The position numbers and the translations under genes were made by a program. From NCBI RefSeq assembly GCF_054482595.1, contig NZ_CM137008.1: a stretch of 64,000 nucleotides of DNA; one strand, given 5' to 3'. Each line of letters begins with the position of its first letter. The stretch's first letter is position 1. This document shows positions 19,598-39,627 of the stretch, one piece after another. The notes beneath the pieces are model-generated. The model saw only the letters and a list, made by a program, of their open reading frames with translations. It ran no database searches and was not told the origin of the DNA.

Positions 19598-20203
19598 TTA
19601 CACTGGTGTGTTCAGCAAATCGTTAACGGCATCAGATGCCGGGTTACCTGCAGCCAGCGGTGCCGGTGCCCCCTGCATCAGACGATCCAGCGCAGTGTCA
19701 CTGCGCGCCTGTGCACTCTGTGGTGCTGCGGCCAGAATGCGGCGTGCCGTTTCCACGGTCATACCGGGGGTTTCTGCCAGCACGCGGGCCTGTTCTTCGC
19801 GTCCGTGAGCCTCCTCACAGTTGAGGATCCCCATAATGCGGCTGTTTTCTGCCGCAACCGCTGCGGTGATCTGCGCGTTCACGTCCGGCTGCACCGCGCT
19901 GGCGTTTTCGCCCTCCGTCGCTGACACCACATCAGTAACATCAGCCTGCGAAGCAGTGGCTGAAACAGTTGTTGATTGAGTCTCTTTGGTCATTCGCCCT
20001 CCTGAGAGACGGGATTTACGTGCATCCAGTGCCTCACGCATAACGGTGATCGCATCGGTGCTGTTAACAAGTTCATCAGCCAGTCCGGCATCAATGGCCT
20101 CCTGACCGCTGTACACTGCAGCCTCGGTATCCAGAACAGCCTGCACGGACAGGCCGGTATATGCCGATACCTTCTGCGCAAACATCTGGCGGGTTGCATC
20201 CAT
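19598..20203 (-). CDS. nu3: Scaffolding protein Nu3 (in-frame nested in 3' part of C; 201 aa)
   Basis: Internal Met MDATRQMFAQ exactly 201 codons before the shared stop, as in lambda. Confidence 0.75.
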   Translation of the reverse strand: MDATRQMFAQKVSAYTGLSVQAVLDTEAAVYSGQEAIDAGLADELVNSTDAITVMREALDARKSRLSGGRMTKETQSTTVSATASQADVTDVVSATEGENASAVQPDVNAQITAAVAAENSRIMGILNCEEAHGREEQARVLAETPGMTVETARRILAAAPQSAQARSDTALDRLMQGAPAPLAAGNPASDAVNDLLNTPV

Positions 20204-20897
20204 CCGGGATTGCAGTGTTTCCCGGACGTCATCCGGAAGATGGCTGTAGGGGTTGCCATCCACCTTATGGCTGCCGCTGTAAATCAGCGTGATTTCCACG
20301 CCCTGTTTCTCCAGCGCAGCACCGTAATTACTGTGAGCCATCATGACGCCGATGGAGCCTGTCCGGGCGGTCTGTGTGACCAGACGCCGGGAGGCGGCAC
20401 TGGCAAGCAGCTGACCTGCACTACAGTTCATGTCGTTGGCCAGCGCCCATACCGGTTTTATGTCACGCACACGGGCGATGATGTCAGCGCAATCAAATAC
20501 CCCCGCCACCATCCCGCCTGGCGTGTCCATATCGAGCAGAATGCCGTCCACCATCGGATCGCTGGCAGCCTGTTGCAGACGGGCGATAATGCCGTTGTAA
20601 CCGGTCATCCCCGAATACGGCTGCAGCGCCCGCGTCCGGCTGACCAGCGTGCCGGACACCGGCAGCACGGCGATGCCATTCATGACCTGATAACTGCGGG
20701 CCTGTCGTGGCCCGTCATCATCACCGGATAACGCCAGCGTCGCGGGTGACTCTCCGGCAGTCAGGCTGTCACCTGACACCGCATCCGTCAGGCGGCTTAT
20801 CCCAATCTGGCCTGCAAGCGCACAAAAGAAAACCCGCGCATAGGCGGGTTCAAGCATCAGCGGCTCATTAAAGGCCATGCTGGCAATATGCGGGAGA

Positions 20898-20917
<20 letters not shown>
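19598..20917 (-). CDS. C: Capsid assembly protease C (start inferred at GTG; 439 aa)
   Basis: VTAELRNLPHIASMAFNEP aligns with lambda gpC N-terminus; the ORF-track upstream ATG extension is probably not used. Confidence 0.8.
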
Positions 20918-24598
<3,681 letters not shown>

Positions 24599-35122: not shown

Positions 35123-35830
35123 ATGGTTCAGAATGAAAAAGTGCGCAAAGAATTCGCCCAGCGGCTAGCGCAAGCCTGTAAAGAAGCTGGTCTTGATGAA
35201 CATGGTAGGGGTATGGCCATAGCCCGTGCCCTTTCTCTTTCGTCCAAAGGCGTTAGCAAATGGTTTAATGCTGAGTCTTTACCGCGTCAGGAAAAAATGA
35301 ATGCGCTTGCGAAATTTCTAAACGTTGATGTTGTTTGGCTTCAGCACGGCACTTCGTTAAATGGAGCGAATGATGAAGATACTCTTTCATTTGTTGGCAA
35401 ATTAAAAAAAGGGTTAGTGCGCGTGGTTGGTGAGGCAATTCTTGGTGTTGATGGTGCCATCGAGATGACCGAAGAGCGCGATGGGTGGCTCAAGATTTAT
35501 AGTGATGATCCAGATGCCTTTGGTCTTCGTGTGAAAGGAGACAGCATGTGGCCCAGAATAAAATCAGGAGAATATGTACTCATTGAGCCTAACACCAAAG
35601 TATTCCCGGGGGATGAGGTGTTTGTCAGAACCGTTGAAGGACACAACATGATCAAGATTCTTGGCTATGACAGAGATGGAGAATACCAATTTACAAGCAT
35701 CAACCAGGACCACAGGCCAATAACGTTACCTTATCATCAAGTAGCAAAGGTGGAGTATGTGGCTGGTATTCTGAAGCAATCTCGTCATCTGGATGACATC
35801 GAGGCAAGGGAGTGGCTGAAAAGTTTGTGA
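35123..35830 (+). CDS. cI: CI-type prophage repressor (HTH plus LexA/S24 peptidase-like C-terminal domain), non-lambda immunity
   Basis: 235-aa ORF; N-terminal HTH and C-terminal LexA/S24-like autocleavage domain (GDSM motif); differs from remembered lambda cI. Confidence 0.85.
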   Translation: MVQNEKVRKEFAQRLAQACKEAGLDEHGRGMAIARALSLSSKGVSKWFNAESLPRQEKMNALAKFLNVDVVWLQHGTSLNGANDEDTLSFVGKLKKGLVRVVGEAILGVDGAIEMTEERDGWLKIYSDDPDAFGLRVKGDSMWPRIKSGEYVLIEPNTKVFPGDEVFVRTVEGHNMIKILGYDRDGEYQFTSINQDHRPITLPYHQVAKVEYVAGILKQSRHLDDIEAREWLKSL

Positions 35831-35938: not shown

Positions 35939-36274
35939 TTGATGAGAGGCGTTATGGAACCGGTCAAAATTAAACCATCTGTGGATTATATTGAAACCTA
36001 TGCGGACTTCGCTAGTTTTGCTCCACTACCGGGAGCGGAAAAAAATCTCATTTGTATACATTTTATCGCAAACAAGTCAATACCTGCGGTACTATCCCAA
36101 AATGATATACCAGATCAACCAGGTAGAGCGAATATGCAGATAGGCTCTGTAAATGAACTCAATCAGCAATGCACTGTGATAATGCCAATGGCACAACTAA
36201 AGGCTCTTCAGGAGAATATAGTTCTTCTTTTCGAACAATTAGAGGCACAAAACTCTAATGGAGCGAAGTCGTAA
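35939..36274 (+). CDS. Hypothetical protein A of the cI-downstream operon (likely start at MEPVKIK, 35954; about 106 aa)
   Basis: ORF preceded by gagagg SD-like sequence; stop overlaps next start (TAATG); no recognisable domain. Confidence 0.65.
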   Translation: MMRGVMEPVKIKPSVDYIETYADFASFAPLPGAEKNLICIHFIANKSIPAVLSQNDIPDQPGRANMQIGSVNELNQQCTVIMPMAQLKALQENIVLLFEQLEAQNSNGAKS

Positions 36275-36957
36275 TGCAACAACCGGAAGAAGTAGGTGAT
36301 TTAACTATTACTTACAAAACATCAAGTATTGTTAAACCACTGCAAGTTTCCCTGAATAACGTTAATACTCGCGATTTCATGATGTTCATGGAAACAGCAA
36401 AAGGTAATCTGTTTTCTACGCCTATTTCCTCTTATTCACCAAAAAACATGGTGGATGATGCGACCAATTCCCAGCTAACTGCTACAATCGTAGATAAAGG
36501 AGGGGTTGCCGATTGTAAAGGACAATCTAATGTTATCCCACCGTACGAGGAAACTCCTATACAGGGAACCGCAATGTCCGATTTGAGCAGAAACGAAATA
36601 CAGGCACTTCTGAAGGCAAATAAAGCTGAAGTGGATGCAGTGGCCTCAAAAATGCAGGCTGATATGGCCAAATGGCGTGAACTAATGGCTTCAGATATAA
36701 AGGAGATGAAGCATTTAGTTGTTACTCAGCACGAACAAATCAACAGTCGTCTGGACATACAATCGAGTAGAATTGAGAGTGCCCTTGACTCCCAATCAAA
36801 AAAGATCGATGCAGCTCTTTCTGTTCAAGAGGCAAAGTTAGAAGGTAAGCTTAGTGATGTTAAGCTTGATATAATCAAATGGGCCCTTGGCTTGCCAGCA
36901 TTAGCATTTGCTGTATATAAAATCTACGGATTGCTCTCTGGAGTCTCAACCCCCTAA
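36274..36957 (+). CDS. Hypothetical protein B of the cI-downstream operon: coiled-coil protein with C-terminal transmembrane anchor (227 aa)
   Basis: ORF translationally coupled to the upstream gene; heptad-like stretch in residues ~110-200; hydrophobic tail IIKWALGLPALAFAVYKIYGLLSGV. Confidence 0.7.
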   Translation: MQQPEEVGDLTITYKTSSIVKPLQVSLNNVNTRDFMMFMETAKGNLFSTPISSYSPKNMVDDATNSQLTATIVDKGGVADCKGQSNVIPPYEETPIQGTAMSDLSRNEIQALLKANKAEVDAVASKMQADMAKWRELMASDIKEMKHLVVTQHEQINSRLDIQSSRIESALDSQSKKIDAALSVQEAKLEGKLSDVKLDIIKWALGLPALAFAVYKIYGLLSGVSTP

Positions 36958-36963
36958 TACACA

Positions 36964-36989
36964 CCCGGCCTCAGTGCCGGGTTTTCTTT
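36964..36989 (+). terminator. Rho-independent terminator after the cI-downstream operon (tIMM-like)
   Basis: cccggc ctcagt gccggg followed by ttttcttt. Confidence 0.7.
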
Positions 36990-37198
36990 GCCCAACGTTC
37001 GCCCACCTAAAAACACATAATCGATTGTATTTATTGAAAAACTGATAGATACAACTTGCTAAACAGTGCAACCCTGATCCCTGCCCCATCACCTTCATCC
37101 TCAACATTTACAAAAATAAAATACCTTATATATCAAAACCATATCTCGAGAAAACGAATGAACAACAAAATTTCGTACTTATGGTTCTTGATTGTATC

Positions 37199-37227
37199 GA
37201 ACCAATAGTTCATTATTATCACCATCA
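37199..37227 (+). promoter_or_regulatory. Candidate pL (-35 TTGATT, 17-nt spacer, -10 CATTAT) with overlapping oL-like sites
   Basis: Read in sequence; tcgtacttatggttc motif shared with oR region. Confidence 0.4.
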
Positions 37228-37263
37228 GCAGGACGCTGGAAGCCAAACGGAACAGACTGGCAG

Positions 37264-37308
37264 GCTCTTTAAACAACGTCGAACTCTCGACTACGTGGCT
37301 GAAAAGCC
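37264..37308 (+). promoter_or_regulatory. nutL (boxA GCTCTTT ... boxB hairpin GGCUGAAAAGCC)
   Basis: gctctttaaacaacg...ctacgtggctgaaaagcc aligns with nutR candidate. Confidence 0.6.
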
Positions 37309-37407
37309 AGATCACCCAACCACATAAGCTGTGGGATGCAATGCCGAAGCAACCGTCTCAGGAGGAGCTTCGAGATTGCATCGCCAAAGTTTATTCGGGA
37401 GGAATCT

Positions 37408-37680
37408 ATGTCCAGAAAAACAAAATTTAAAGGCACCGCAGCTTCTCGCCGTAGAGCCCGTCGCGCAAATCTGCAAAGTCAGGAGGCGATCAGCTCCGAC
37501 AAGCTACACAGACCAACCCCTTCACGAGTGGTCTTGCAATGCAAGCGCAAACCAGCAATGAGAGCAGAAGTTATAACTCTGACAACGTTGACCAGAAAAT
37601 ATGAAGGTTCAACTTGTCTTCCGAACGTAGCTCTTTACGCGGCAGGCTACCGGAAATCAAAACAACTGACGGCGAGATGA
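37408..37680 (+). CDS. N: N-type transcription antiterminator with N-terminal arginine-rich motif
   Basis: Strong SD gggagg before ATG; MSRKTKFKGTAASRRRARRANLQ arginine-rich motif; position downstream of pL/nutL. Confidence 0.75.
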   Translation: MSRKTKFKGTAASRRRARRANLQSQEAISSDKLHRPTPSRVVLQCKRKPAMRAEVITLTTLTRKYEGSTCLPNVALYAAGYRKSKQLTAR

Positions 37681-37696
37681 TAAATTAATTTGCTAA

Positions 37697-38278
37697 TTAC
37701 TTGTTTTTGCCATGCTTATCCTGAGCGATAAGTTCATCCATAAGACTGTCTTTCTTCCCAGCAAACCTAATGTAGCACTCATTTCTATAGCGTTCCGGGA
37801 TAACAAAACGGTCGATTTCAGGATATCCAGTAGCAGAAGGTACCCGAATAAGAAGCCCTTTTTCGAGCAATGAGATTGCTTCAGGGCTTCCCTTTTCTGT
37901 CTTTAGCTGGTTATTAGCGGCTACAGCGAATGCCAAATACGCTCTTTCTCCAAGAGTTAACGAATCAAACAAATCTTGCACGTATTTCTCTTCTTTAGAT
38001 TTGCGCTTCTGAGCAGCGAATATCTCAATTCTTTCAGTCACAGCGTGATAAGCGGAATTAACAACGCCGTTAAGCACATAGCTAACGCAAAACAACAGGA
38101 TGTAATACATCCAGTAATGAGGAAGGATTTCTGGATTATGCAGGTTTATCCATTCTTTTACGCTTACAGGCATAACAATAATCAATATGATCAGGATGAT
38201 TAGCATATGAATCAACTGTTTAAGTGTCATTCCTTGCAGGAAAAAATGCATTAGTTCCTGCCACCATGAGTTGTTCAT
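37697..38278 (-). CDS. sieB: Superinfection exclusion protein B-like inner membrane protein
   Basis: 193-aa ORF with N-terminal hydrophobic helices, convergent with N; lambda sieB position/orientation from memory. Confidence 0.5.
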   Translation of the reverse strand: MNNSWWQELMHFFLQGMTLKQLIHMLIILIILIIVMPVSVKEWINLHNPEILPHYWMYYILLFCVSYVLNGVVNSAYHAVTERIEIFAAQKRKSKEEKYVQDLFDSLTLGERAYLAFAVAANNQLKTEKGSPEAISLLEKGLLIRVPSATGYPEIDRFVIPERYRNECYIRFAGKKDSLMDELIAQDKHGKNK

Positions 38279-38492
38279 CGGCGTTTCTCTTTTGCTCTCT
38301 GTAGGGGTGAATAGAGTTTATCCGATTTCTCGCTGTAGGGGTACACGAGAACCACCGAGCCTGATGTGGTTAAAAGACAGGCATACTAATAAACACTGCA
38401 CTGTGTATTCATTCCAACGAGTGAATACACTGAGCAATGTCGCTCGTAACTAAACAGGAGCCGACTTGTTCTGATTATTGGAAATCTTCTTT

Positions 38493-38518
38493 GCCCTCCA
38501 ATGTGAGGGCGATTTTTT
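38493..38518 (+). terminator. Rho-independent terminator in pL operon (tL1-like)
   Basis: gccctc caatgtg agggc followed by gatttttta. Confidence 0.6.
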
Positions 38519-38538
38519 ATCTGTGAGGATATGAATAG

Positions 38539-38907
38539 ATGTCAAACATCAAAAAATACATCATTGATTACGACTGGAAAGCATCAATAGAAATTGAAAT
38601 CGACCATGACGTAATGACAGAGGAAAAACTTCACCAGATTAATAATTTCTGGTCAGACTCTGAATACCGACTCAATAAACACGGCTCTGTATTAAATGCT
38701 GTATTAATCATGCTGGCGCAACATGCTCTGCTTATAGCAATTTCAAGCGACTTAAATGCATATGGTGTTGTGTGTGAGTTCGACTGGAATGATGGAAATG
38801 GTCAGGAAGGATGGCCTCCAATGGATGGTAGCGAAGGAATAAGAATTACCGATATCGATACATCAGGAATATTTGATTCAGATGATATGACTATCAAAGC
38901 CGCCTGA
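38539..38907 (+). CDS. ea10: Ea10-like protein (122 aa)
   Basis: Length identical to lambda Ea10 and position upstream of cIII. Confidence 0.65.
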   Translation: MSNIKKYIIDYDWKASIEIEIDHDVMTEEKLHQINNFWSDSEYRLNKHGSVLNAVLIMLAQHALLIAISSDLNAYGVVCEFDWNDGNGQEGWPPMDGSEGIRITDIDTSGIFDSDDMTIKAA

Positions 38908-38979
38908 GCGCGGCGTTACCGCATACCAATAACGCTTCACTCGAGGCGTTTTTCGTTATGTATAAATAAGGAGCACACC

Positions 38980-39144
38980 ATGCAATATGCCATTGCAGGG
39001 TGGCCTGTTGCTGGCTGCCCTTCCGAATCTTTACTTGAACGAATCACCCGTAAATTACGTGACGGATGGAAACGCCTTATCGACATACTTAATCAGCCAG
39101 GAGTCCCAAAAAATGGATCAAACACTTATGGCTATCCAGACTAA
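38980..39144 (+). CDS. cIII: CIII (54 aa; below ORF-track threshold)
   Basis: Manual translation [54 protein letters not shown]. Confidence 0.9.
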   Translation: MQYAIAGWPVAGCPSESLLERITRKLRDGWKRLIDILNQPGVPKNGSNTYGYPD

Positions 39145-39256
39145 ATTCACTATCGCCACTTTTATTGGCGATGAAAAGATGTTTCGTGAGGCCGTCGACG
39201 CTTATAAAAAATGGATATTAATACTGAAACTGAGATCAAGCAAAAGCATTCACTAA
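39113..39256 (+). CDS. kil: Kil (47 aa; host killing, FtsZ inhibitor)
   Basis: [47 protein letters not shown] is the 3' part of an artefactual 89-aa track ORF. Confidence 0.85.
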
Positions 39257-39627
39257 CCCCCTTTCCTGTTTTCCTAATCAGCCCGGCATTTCGCGGGCGA
39301 TATTTTCACAGCTATTTCAGGAGTTCAGCCATGAACGCTTATTACATTCAGGATCGTCTTGAGGCTCAGAGCTGGACGCGTCACTACCAGCAGATCGCCC
39401 GTGAAGAGAAAGAGGCAGAACTGGCAGACGACATGGAAAAAGGTCTGCCCCAGCACCTGTTTGAATCACTCTGCATCGATCATTTACAACGCCACGGGGC
39501 CAGCAAAAAAGCCATTACCCGTGCGTTTGATGACGATGTTGAGTTTCAGGAGCGCATGGCAGAACACATCCGGTACATGGTTGAAACCATTGCTCACCAC
39601 CAGGTTGATATTGATTCAGAGGTATAA
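39211..39627 (+). CDS. gam: Gam (RecBCD inhibitor)
   Basis: 138-aa ORF, lambda length/sequence. Confidence 0.95.

Follow-up and report, generated by a model that had tools for sequence, protein, structure and literature searches.

What is the function of a 10-nt sequence, CTGTAGGGGT, that stands twice in front of a small gene beside N in a lambdoid prophage? The prophage lies in a stretch of 64,000 nucleotides (NCBI RefSeq assembly GCF_054482595.1, contig NZ_CM137008.1; hereafter, the window), in which a first-pass annotation, made from the sequence alone, had placed a SieB-like membrane protein gene with the repeat in its upstream region and had suggested that the repeat marks a binding site or promoter element. 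The gene itself is readily assigned.

37697..38278, minus strand: sieB, encoding P22-type superinfection exclusion protein B, 193 aa, ATG start (assigned by Pfam, PHROG and identity to P22)

Several lines of evidence support this assignment. The 193-aa minus-strand ORF that had been proposed is present with an ATG start, and the family similarity on which the proposal depended is clear: its product matches the Pfam SieB profile PF14163 with 90.4 bits (cut-off, 26; E = 1.1e-25) over profile positions 2 to 144 of 147, and PHROG 1301 over its full length (E = 6.4e-124). In alignments with the two proteins that had been named for comparison, it is 84% identical to SieB of P22 and 27% identical to SieB of lambda. 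The proposed hydrophobic N-terminus is also borne out, with a strongly hydrophobic segment at residues 22-40 (mean Kyte-Doolittle hydropathy, 3.03) and a weaker one at residues ~56-74, which falls below the cut-off of 1.6 (about 1.5 by hand calculation). According to the literature, SieB shuts down macromolecular synthesis mid-cycle and thereby aborts lytic growth of the superinfecting phage (PMC10461980, PMC7380047). Thus, the ORF is SieB, an exclusion protein of the abortive-infection type with a hydrophobic N-terminus, for which the exclusion function is predicted from P22 and lambda. No defence-system model in PADLOC fits SieB or the alternative cargo proteins described below.

This copy of sieB is already known. 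A 1261-bp region containing it is 99-100% identical to VT1-Sakai (Sp15, AP000400), in which sieB is annotated, and several E. coli chromosomes, in which PGAP names the product super-infection exclusion protein B, are equally close. These prophages carry the same allele, likewise lack ral, and show essentially no difference from the window. Partial matches to the sieB region were found in 2305 of 5426 complete E. coli genomes, with 233 covering at least 80% of the query. The gene is, therefore, an ordinary, annotated allele and in itself nothing new.

The neighbourhood of sieB is that of a lambdoid early left region.

37408..37680, plus strand: N antiterminator, 90 aa, convergent with sieB (PF25694 N_peptide, E = 7.9e-32; N in VT1-Sakai and ev207)
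38384..38387, no strand: junction lacking ral and orf28 (from alignment to ev207 and lambda)
38539..38907, plus strand: ea10 (DUF2528), the next gene of the pL operon (PF10800, E = 1.8e-47; annotated Ea10/ssb)

sieB lies between N and ea10 and is oriented against pL, as had been noted for lambda sieB. The stop codon of N ends at 37680 and that of sieB starts at 37697, which leaves 16 nt between them and agrees with the reported distance of 17 nt as a difference of coordinates. A generic terminator scan called no terminator between N and sieB. The absence of ral was also correctly seen: a 336-bp segment of ev207 and lambda has no counterpart between sieB and ea10, and orf28 is gone together with ral. 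The junction is common to VT1-Sakai, HK446, and HK620.

Other elements in this part of the window are listed here for orientation. Upstream of ea10, a long imperfect inverted repeat with 22-nt arms that are 82% complementary (38393-38440, plus strand) and a GC-rich hairpin followed by a T run (38491-38520, plus strand), which is annotated in HK620 as terminator tL2A, are both conserved in lambda, ev207, VT1-Sakai, and HK620. The start of cIII (38967-39025, plus strand) matches the lambda cIII thermoregulator, Rfam RF01804, with 88.5 bits (E = 1e-21). Between a cI-like repressor with Peptidase_S24 and HTH domains (35123-35830) and N, two ORFs occupy the slot of lambda rexA/rexB (35939-36957, plus strand). 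The 111-aa ORF has no family match; the 227-aa ORF belongs to PHROG 14825, which has no assigned function, and has a hydrophobic C-terminus and a weak, sub-threshold match to a CCDC90-like coiled coil (28.1 bits; cut-off, 33.5). The two ORFs may be a candidate prophage-expressed exclusion module. Further away, at 33924-34000 (plus strand), short direct and inverted repeats are clustered, including three copies of TTTGAGGGAT and two of TCCCTCGTTT; they resemble the iterons of a lambda-type replication origin, and their place fits an O-like gene.

We next consider the repeat.

38299..38308, plus strand: gene-proximal copy of CTGTAGGGGT; its complement, ACCCCTACAG, forms +1..+10 of the predicted sieB mRNA (from sequence and P22 alignment)
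38333..38342, plus strand: gene-distal copy of CTGTAGGGGT; overlaps the -35 region of the promoter PsieB and, on the pL-sense RNA, makes up the apex of hairpin H2

As had been claimed, the sequence is found exactly twice upstream of sieB. The spacing of 15 bp given for the copies does not hold: they are 34 bp apart from start to start with a gap of 24 nt, and they are interspersed direct repeats rather than tandem ones. The similarity runs on to a 17-mer with 15 of 17 matches. Exact 10-mer direct-repeat pairs within 60 bp are frequent in the window as a whole, with 20 pairs compared to 4.1 ± 2.5 in shuffled sequences, and occur at about a dozen sites. We, therefore, judged the repeat by its conservation and not by its occurrence. 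P22, lambda, HK620, and dozens of further contigs have kept both decamers as well as the distance between them. A third exact copy of the decamer, at 20244-20253 (plus strand), lies in the loop of a hairpin with a 6-bp stem (GATGGC...GCCATC), antisense to a 484-aa ORF (19598-21052, minus strand); because its fold is not above shuffles (z = -0.75), we treat it as probably a chance occurrence.

Both copies fall in a region that has been characterised in P22 and whose chief known features, esc and sas, the first-pass annotation had left out; the P22 features were transferred to the window by alignment of P22, lambda, ev207, and the window.

38315..38345, minus strand: PsieB promoter region (P22 annotation by homology)
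38315..38320, minus strand: PsieB -10 hexamer TAAACT (3' end of the P22 promoter feature 29690..29720)
38279..38308, minus strand: predicted sieB 5' UTR, 30 nt, with the putative transcription start at 38308 (P22 start site mapped by alignment)
37697..38206, minus strand: esc, predicted nested in-frame ORF starting at SieB Met25 (P22 esc CDS 29830..30336 starts at codon 25)
38274..38383, plus strand: region of a sas-like antisense RNA (homologous to nt 1-111 of a P22 RNA of 127 nt)

In NC_002371, the P22 sieB promoter is annotated at 29690-29720, the sieB RNA start site at 29727, the sieB CDS from 29758, and the nested esc CDS at 29830..30336. The four aligned sequences are near-identical from the conserved core H3, described below, through both decamers, and the window equals P22 from the distal through the proximal decamer, including the -10 hexamer. 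P22 position 29727 corresponds to A 38308, with which ACCCCTACAG begins. The hexamer TAAACT (38320-38315) lies between the decamers, and the distal copy covers about -34 to -25. By homology to P22, from which promoter and start are carried over, sieB would be transcribed from PsieB with a start at A 38308, and with this start the predicted sieB mRNA begins with ACCCCUACAG, the complement of the proximal copy. A generic sigma-70 scan of 37000-39000 did not call PsieB, which we attribute to its poor -35; the -35 of the P22 promoter is equally poor. Ranade and Poteete, in 1993, are said to have mapped the P22 sieB start by RNase protection, to have inactivated the promoter by a double substitution in the -10, and to have identified the lambda sieB promoter by homology. 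Thus, the promoter part of the original suggestion stands, as the copies bracket the homologue of the P22 PsieB and start site; evidence for a protein-binding site was not found, and the data favour an RNA structure formed by the other strand, in the sas antisense RNA.

On the coding side, the esc ATG is at 38206-38204, and Met25 and its nucleotide context are conserved with P22. On the opposite strand, window positions 38274-38383 are identical to P22 sas (P22A-sas, PMC13397905, Table 2) at 107 of 110 positions over nt 1-111, with a 1-nt deletion and three substitutions in the region of the 5' UTR. The sas-like segment covers the sieB AUG (38278-38276), the SD, and the 5' UTR, while the esc AUG lies outside. 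Both decamers are within this segment on the opposite (pL) strand and are, thus, in a region known to act on both strands. P22 sas is described as a cis-acting RNA of 105 nt that switches translation of the sieB mRNA from SieB to Esc (PMC12197685, PMC7067206), and by this switch the phage escapes its own exclusion. A 2026 small-RNA study equated with sas a P22 RNA of 127 nt, which contains both CUGUAGGGGU copies and was seen in infected cells only (PMC13397905). Because of the ral-less junction, the last ~16 nt of the 127-nt species are replaced in the window.

Public records name the SieB protein and leave esc, PsieB, and the sas region without annotation; for this reason, the decamer looks unexplained even though the regulatory region around it has been characterised. 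sas has no Rfam family, and a search of 36500-39500 at E ≤ 1 returned nothing but the cIII thermoregulator and one spurious snoRNA hit, with no match in the repeat region. In full-text literature, the decamer and the H3 core were found in the P22 small-RNA study alone (PMC13397905). A sas promoter inside sieB was considered and dropped by eye, convincing hexamers not being found. Between the SieB and Esc starts, inside sieB codons 6-14, lies a palindrome with a 7-bp stem (GCAGGAA...TTCCTGC, 38236-38261) that could fold in either transcript; at a comparable position, HK620 annotates tL1 inside hkaP.

The pL-sense strand of the region carries two further elements.

38327..38351, plus strand: hairpin H2, UUCUCG-C-UGUA-GGGG-UACA-CGAGAA (predicted fold, compensatory pairs)
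38352..38383, plus strand: conserved core H3, CCACCGAGCCTGATGTGGTTAAAAGACAGGCA (GCCUG/CAGGC pairing in the consensus fold)

On the pL-sense RNA, the distal decamer folds into the upper stem and GGGG loop of H2. In the predicted hairpin, 6 of the 10 decamer bases are paired or bulged and GGGG alone is exposed. In an alignment of 15 sequences, 97.5% of the H2 cells are paired and compensatory double changes are found at four pairs; covariation scores 0.185 compared to 0.098 in shuffles (reached in 0 of 500), in a structure that was derived from the same sequences and with covariation that comes mostly from a few deep splits between types. All slid controls collapse. The H3 core has a single match in the window, where 0.02 are expected, and is present in at least 120 viral contigs. 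Scanning viral contigs for this core gave a wider sample of at least 120 loci with 95 distinct H2 variants. Among the matches listed, 89 of the 95 variants fold at -5 kcal/mol or better, the pL-sense strand is the more stable one in 79 of the 95, and the mean minimum free energy is -8.67 for the pL-sense strand, -6.74 for the opposite strand, and -4.17 for shuffled sequences. Their stems are diverse (GCUGG/CCAGC, CUUGG/CCAAG, ACUGG/CCAGU, GCUAG/CUAGC, CCUUUUA/UAAAAGG, and others). Altogether, these data show H2 to be a hairpin that is conserved in the pL-sense RNA. The whole-region fold of the sas-like RNA has no extra stability over shuffles (z = -0.69 for the window and -1.79 for P22); it is covariation and not energy that supports the structure. 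Inspection by eye also led us to drop four other readings of the region. TGCTCTCTG might be seen as a boxA/nut-like site, but lambda and HK620 do not conserve it; a CsrA motif with GGA in the loop is lacking in the sequence type to which the window belongs (type 1, below); a G-quadruplex would have only two G runs at its disposal; and a CRP-like half-site was likewise discarded.

How far does this arrangement extend beyond sieB? A block of ~85 bp, from the proximal decamer to H3, precedes at least four families of cargo proteins in the same slot: SieB of the P22 type and of the lambda type; PHROG 1244 proteins in HK620 (hkaP), HK446, 689R2, PhiR29_1, and Kp4884-1; a PHROG 5286 protein in 689R6; and a BssS-family protein in F1055. 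The proximal decamer is the exact boundary of homology between loci, including between the lambda-type and the P22-type locus.

The architecture of the block was compared in 114 distinct contexts drawn from the at least 120 loci with the H3 core. Among the matches listed, 50 of the 114 contexts are two-copy elements, with identical 8-14-mers spaced by 32-35 nt. In every one of the 50, a -10-like hexamer (TAAACT, TATAAT, TAAAAT, TAATAT, TGTATAAT, GATAAT, GTTAAT, or TGATACTAT), in several cases with an extended TG, lies 6-7 nt before the complement of the proximal copy; in none of them does ATA stand directly 5' of CCACC, and the alternative TATnCT next to H3 is missing. A further 53 of the 114 contexts listed are single-hairpin elements without the repeat. 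All of these have ATA directly 5' of CCACC, and their cargo strand reads TGG-TATnCT, a predicted extended -10 abutting H3. The remaining 11 of the 114 listed are neither. We read the two-copy form as derived, with the promoter having come 34 bp closer to the cargo and a second copy of the H2 apex being kept at the transcription start. In the single-hairpin loci (L089 from SfV, L098, L104, and ~50 others among those listed), the start codon of the cargo is ~10-35 nt from H2. In five loci (L159, L160, L162, L163, and L184), a variant of the H3 core, CCACCGCGCC...GGCCAAAG, follows a GC-rich …CCCCGCCCGAAGATACCTACCACC, and an H2-like hairpin is lacking.

Two-copy elements fall into three types, namely CTGTAGGGGT twice (type 1), TTGTTGGGGA twice (type 2), and TTGACTGTGGAA twice (type 3). 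Across these types, the two decamers change together, while the spacer diverges; in ev207, Kp4884, and L156, the copies differ at the first position. Repeats of 10 nt are below the minimal length of homology for RecA and, hence, for recombinational homogenisation. Because the copies are identical in each element, the spacer has diverged, and 10 nt are too short to be homogenised, the pattern suggests that the identity of the two copies is under selection. A hairpin around the proximal copy (H1) was rejected as a general feature: the mean number of enclosing pairs is 3.64 compared to 2.47 ± 0.33 in a flank-swap control, with at least three pairs in 17 of 36 contexts, and the support comes from type 1 only and not from types 2 and 3. 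In three IMG/VR loci with P22-type sieB (L037, L046, and L078), the block is broken in or just after a decamer and continues into unrelated sequence, suggesting insertions or rearrangements at this point.

Based on these findings, we consider it probable that the locus is a P22-type sieB/esc/sas module of a lambdoid prophage. In this model, a single mRNA from PsieB would, by homology, give rise to both SieB and Esc. N-antiterminated transcription from pL of the other strand would generate the sas-like antisense RNA, comprising about 38274-38383, and this RNA, lying over the SieB start, would switch translation from SieB to Esc, as in P22. We suggest that the H2 loop, whose sequence can pair with the sense mRNA at its 5' end, may provide a second, structured antisense contact site, and that selection may have kept the decamers identical because this loop has to fit that end. 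Other cargoes may be controlled by the same logic. More tentatively, and at low confidence, the ~85-bp block could act as a portable control cassette, using both strands, for the prophage-expressed gene slot beside N. One strand would then carry a promoter that gives every cargo mRNA the same first 10 nt, and the other would encode a structured pL-derived antisense RNA in which a hairpin loop repeats the complement of the mRNA 5' end.

Other explanations of the repeat have to be weighed against this model. That exact 10-mer repeats occur at about a dozen sites in the window, where ~4 pairs are expected, and that a third copy of the decamer exists at 20244 might point to coincidence; however, the retention of both copies at their distance in P22, lambda, HK620, and dozens of contigs, together with their covariation, refutes chance and leaves it next to no probability. 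It is also conceivable that the decamers are operator-like sites, at approximately -30 and +1..+10, at which a DNA-binding regulator of the host or the phage controls sieB transcription. Identical direct copies with a fixed spacing of 32-35 bp that covary in three types would suit such sites, and PsieB, having no recognisable -35, might use an activator at the distal one. However, the carriers have no protein in common, as lambda, P22, HK620-like, SfV-like, and Klebsiella phages differ in their immunity and early genes, and the spacing of 34 bp, or ~3.2 helical turns, would place the sites on different faces of the helix. Moreover, where the distal copy or its surroundings change, the partner strand of the hairpin changes to compensate, and G:U pairs favour one RNA strand, neither of which is expected of a site in duplex DNA. 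We consider regulation through such operators very unlikely.

Two explanations concern the history of the block and the fate of its RNA. In the former, the repeat is the relic of an old tandem duplication of a ~34-bp leader unit (the +1 decamer and an SD-like tract), after which the promoter moved and the identity of the copies has no function. The extension of the repeat to 15 of 17 positions, the ~60% similarity of the two 34-nt units in the P22-type locus by manual comparison, and the single-hairpin elements, which look like the unduplicated ancestor with its promoter beside H3, all fit such a history. What it leaves unaccounted for is that the spacer has strongly diverged between the three types while the copies are still identical in each element; as repeats of 10 nt are too short to be homogenised by recombination, selection accounts for this more simply, and we regard a functionless relic as quite unlikely. 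Alternatively, H2 and H3 might be no more than a 3' scaffold for the stability or processing of the pL-derived antisense RNA, e.g., as sites for RNase III or RNase E, with the sequence of the decamer being irrelevant to target recognition. Consistent with this, the two elements lie in the 3' part of the sequenced P22 species, the hairpins are conserved beside many cargoes, and no terminator-like U tract follows them. But a scaffold explains neither why a second copy of the H2 apex stands at the mRNA start in 50 of the 50 two-copy elements listed nor why the proximal copy changes in step with H2, and we view both the scaffold and the irrelevance of the decamer as unlikely.

Compared to known systems, the window is closest to P22 sieB/esc/sas (Ranade and Poteete 1993; NC_002371), with which it shares 84% protein identity, the convergent arrangement with the N analogue, a near-identical promoter, RNA start context and esc start context, and the sas region with its 107 of 110 identities. 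It differs from P22 in having an E. coli host and an N of the phage-21 type and in lacking ral and orf28. Lambda sieB (NP_597779) has the same PF14163 family, slot, and orientation and is conserved from the proximal decamer through H3; by contrast, its protein is only 27% identical, beyond the decamer, its 5' UTR and coding sequence show no relationship to those of the window, and orf28 and ral are present. HK620 has the upstream block with both decamers and the ral-less junction; its cargo, HkaP, is unrelated to SieB, has no PF14163 match, and belongs to PHROG 1244, which is without an assigned function. Short structured antisense RNAs that lie over the 5' end or RBS of their target are also known from P22 sar/ant, with sar annotated in NC_002371, and from lambda OOP/cII, and sas resembles them in this respect. 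Unlike these two, sas reportedly does more than repress its target, switching translation from one start codon to another on a single mRNA, and the antisense segment in the window contains two copies of a sequence complementary to the mRNA 5' end.

For sieB itself, the value of these findings lies in the annotation of esc, PsieB, and the sas region. The new element, a modest one, is the repeat region as a conserved, covarying cassette common to several cargo genes, and it may prove the more important part. The block offers a sequence signature for finding unassigned prophage-expressed cargo genes in lambdoid prophages, and its presence, with covariation, before different cargoes gives a testable hypothesis for how temperate phages avoid their own exclusion genes. 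If the hypothesis of a portable cassette is true, self-immunity of the sas type, in which a prophage's own exclusion or toxic gene is silenced once pL fires, would be general to the slot and not a peculiarity of P22, and a match in decamer type could decide which superinfecting phages escape which prophages.
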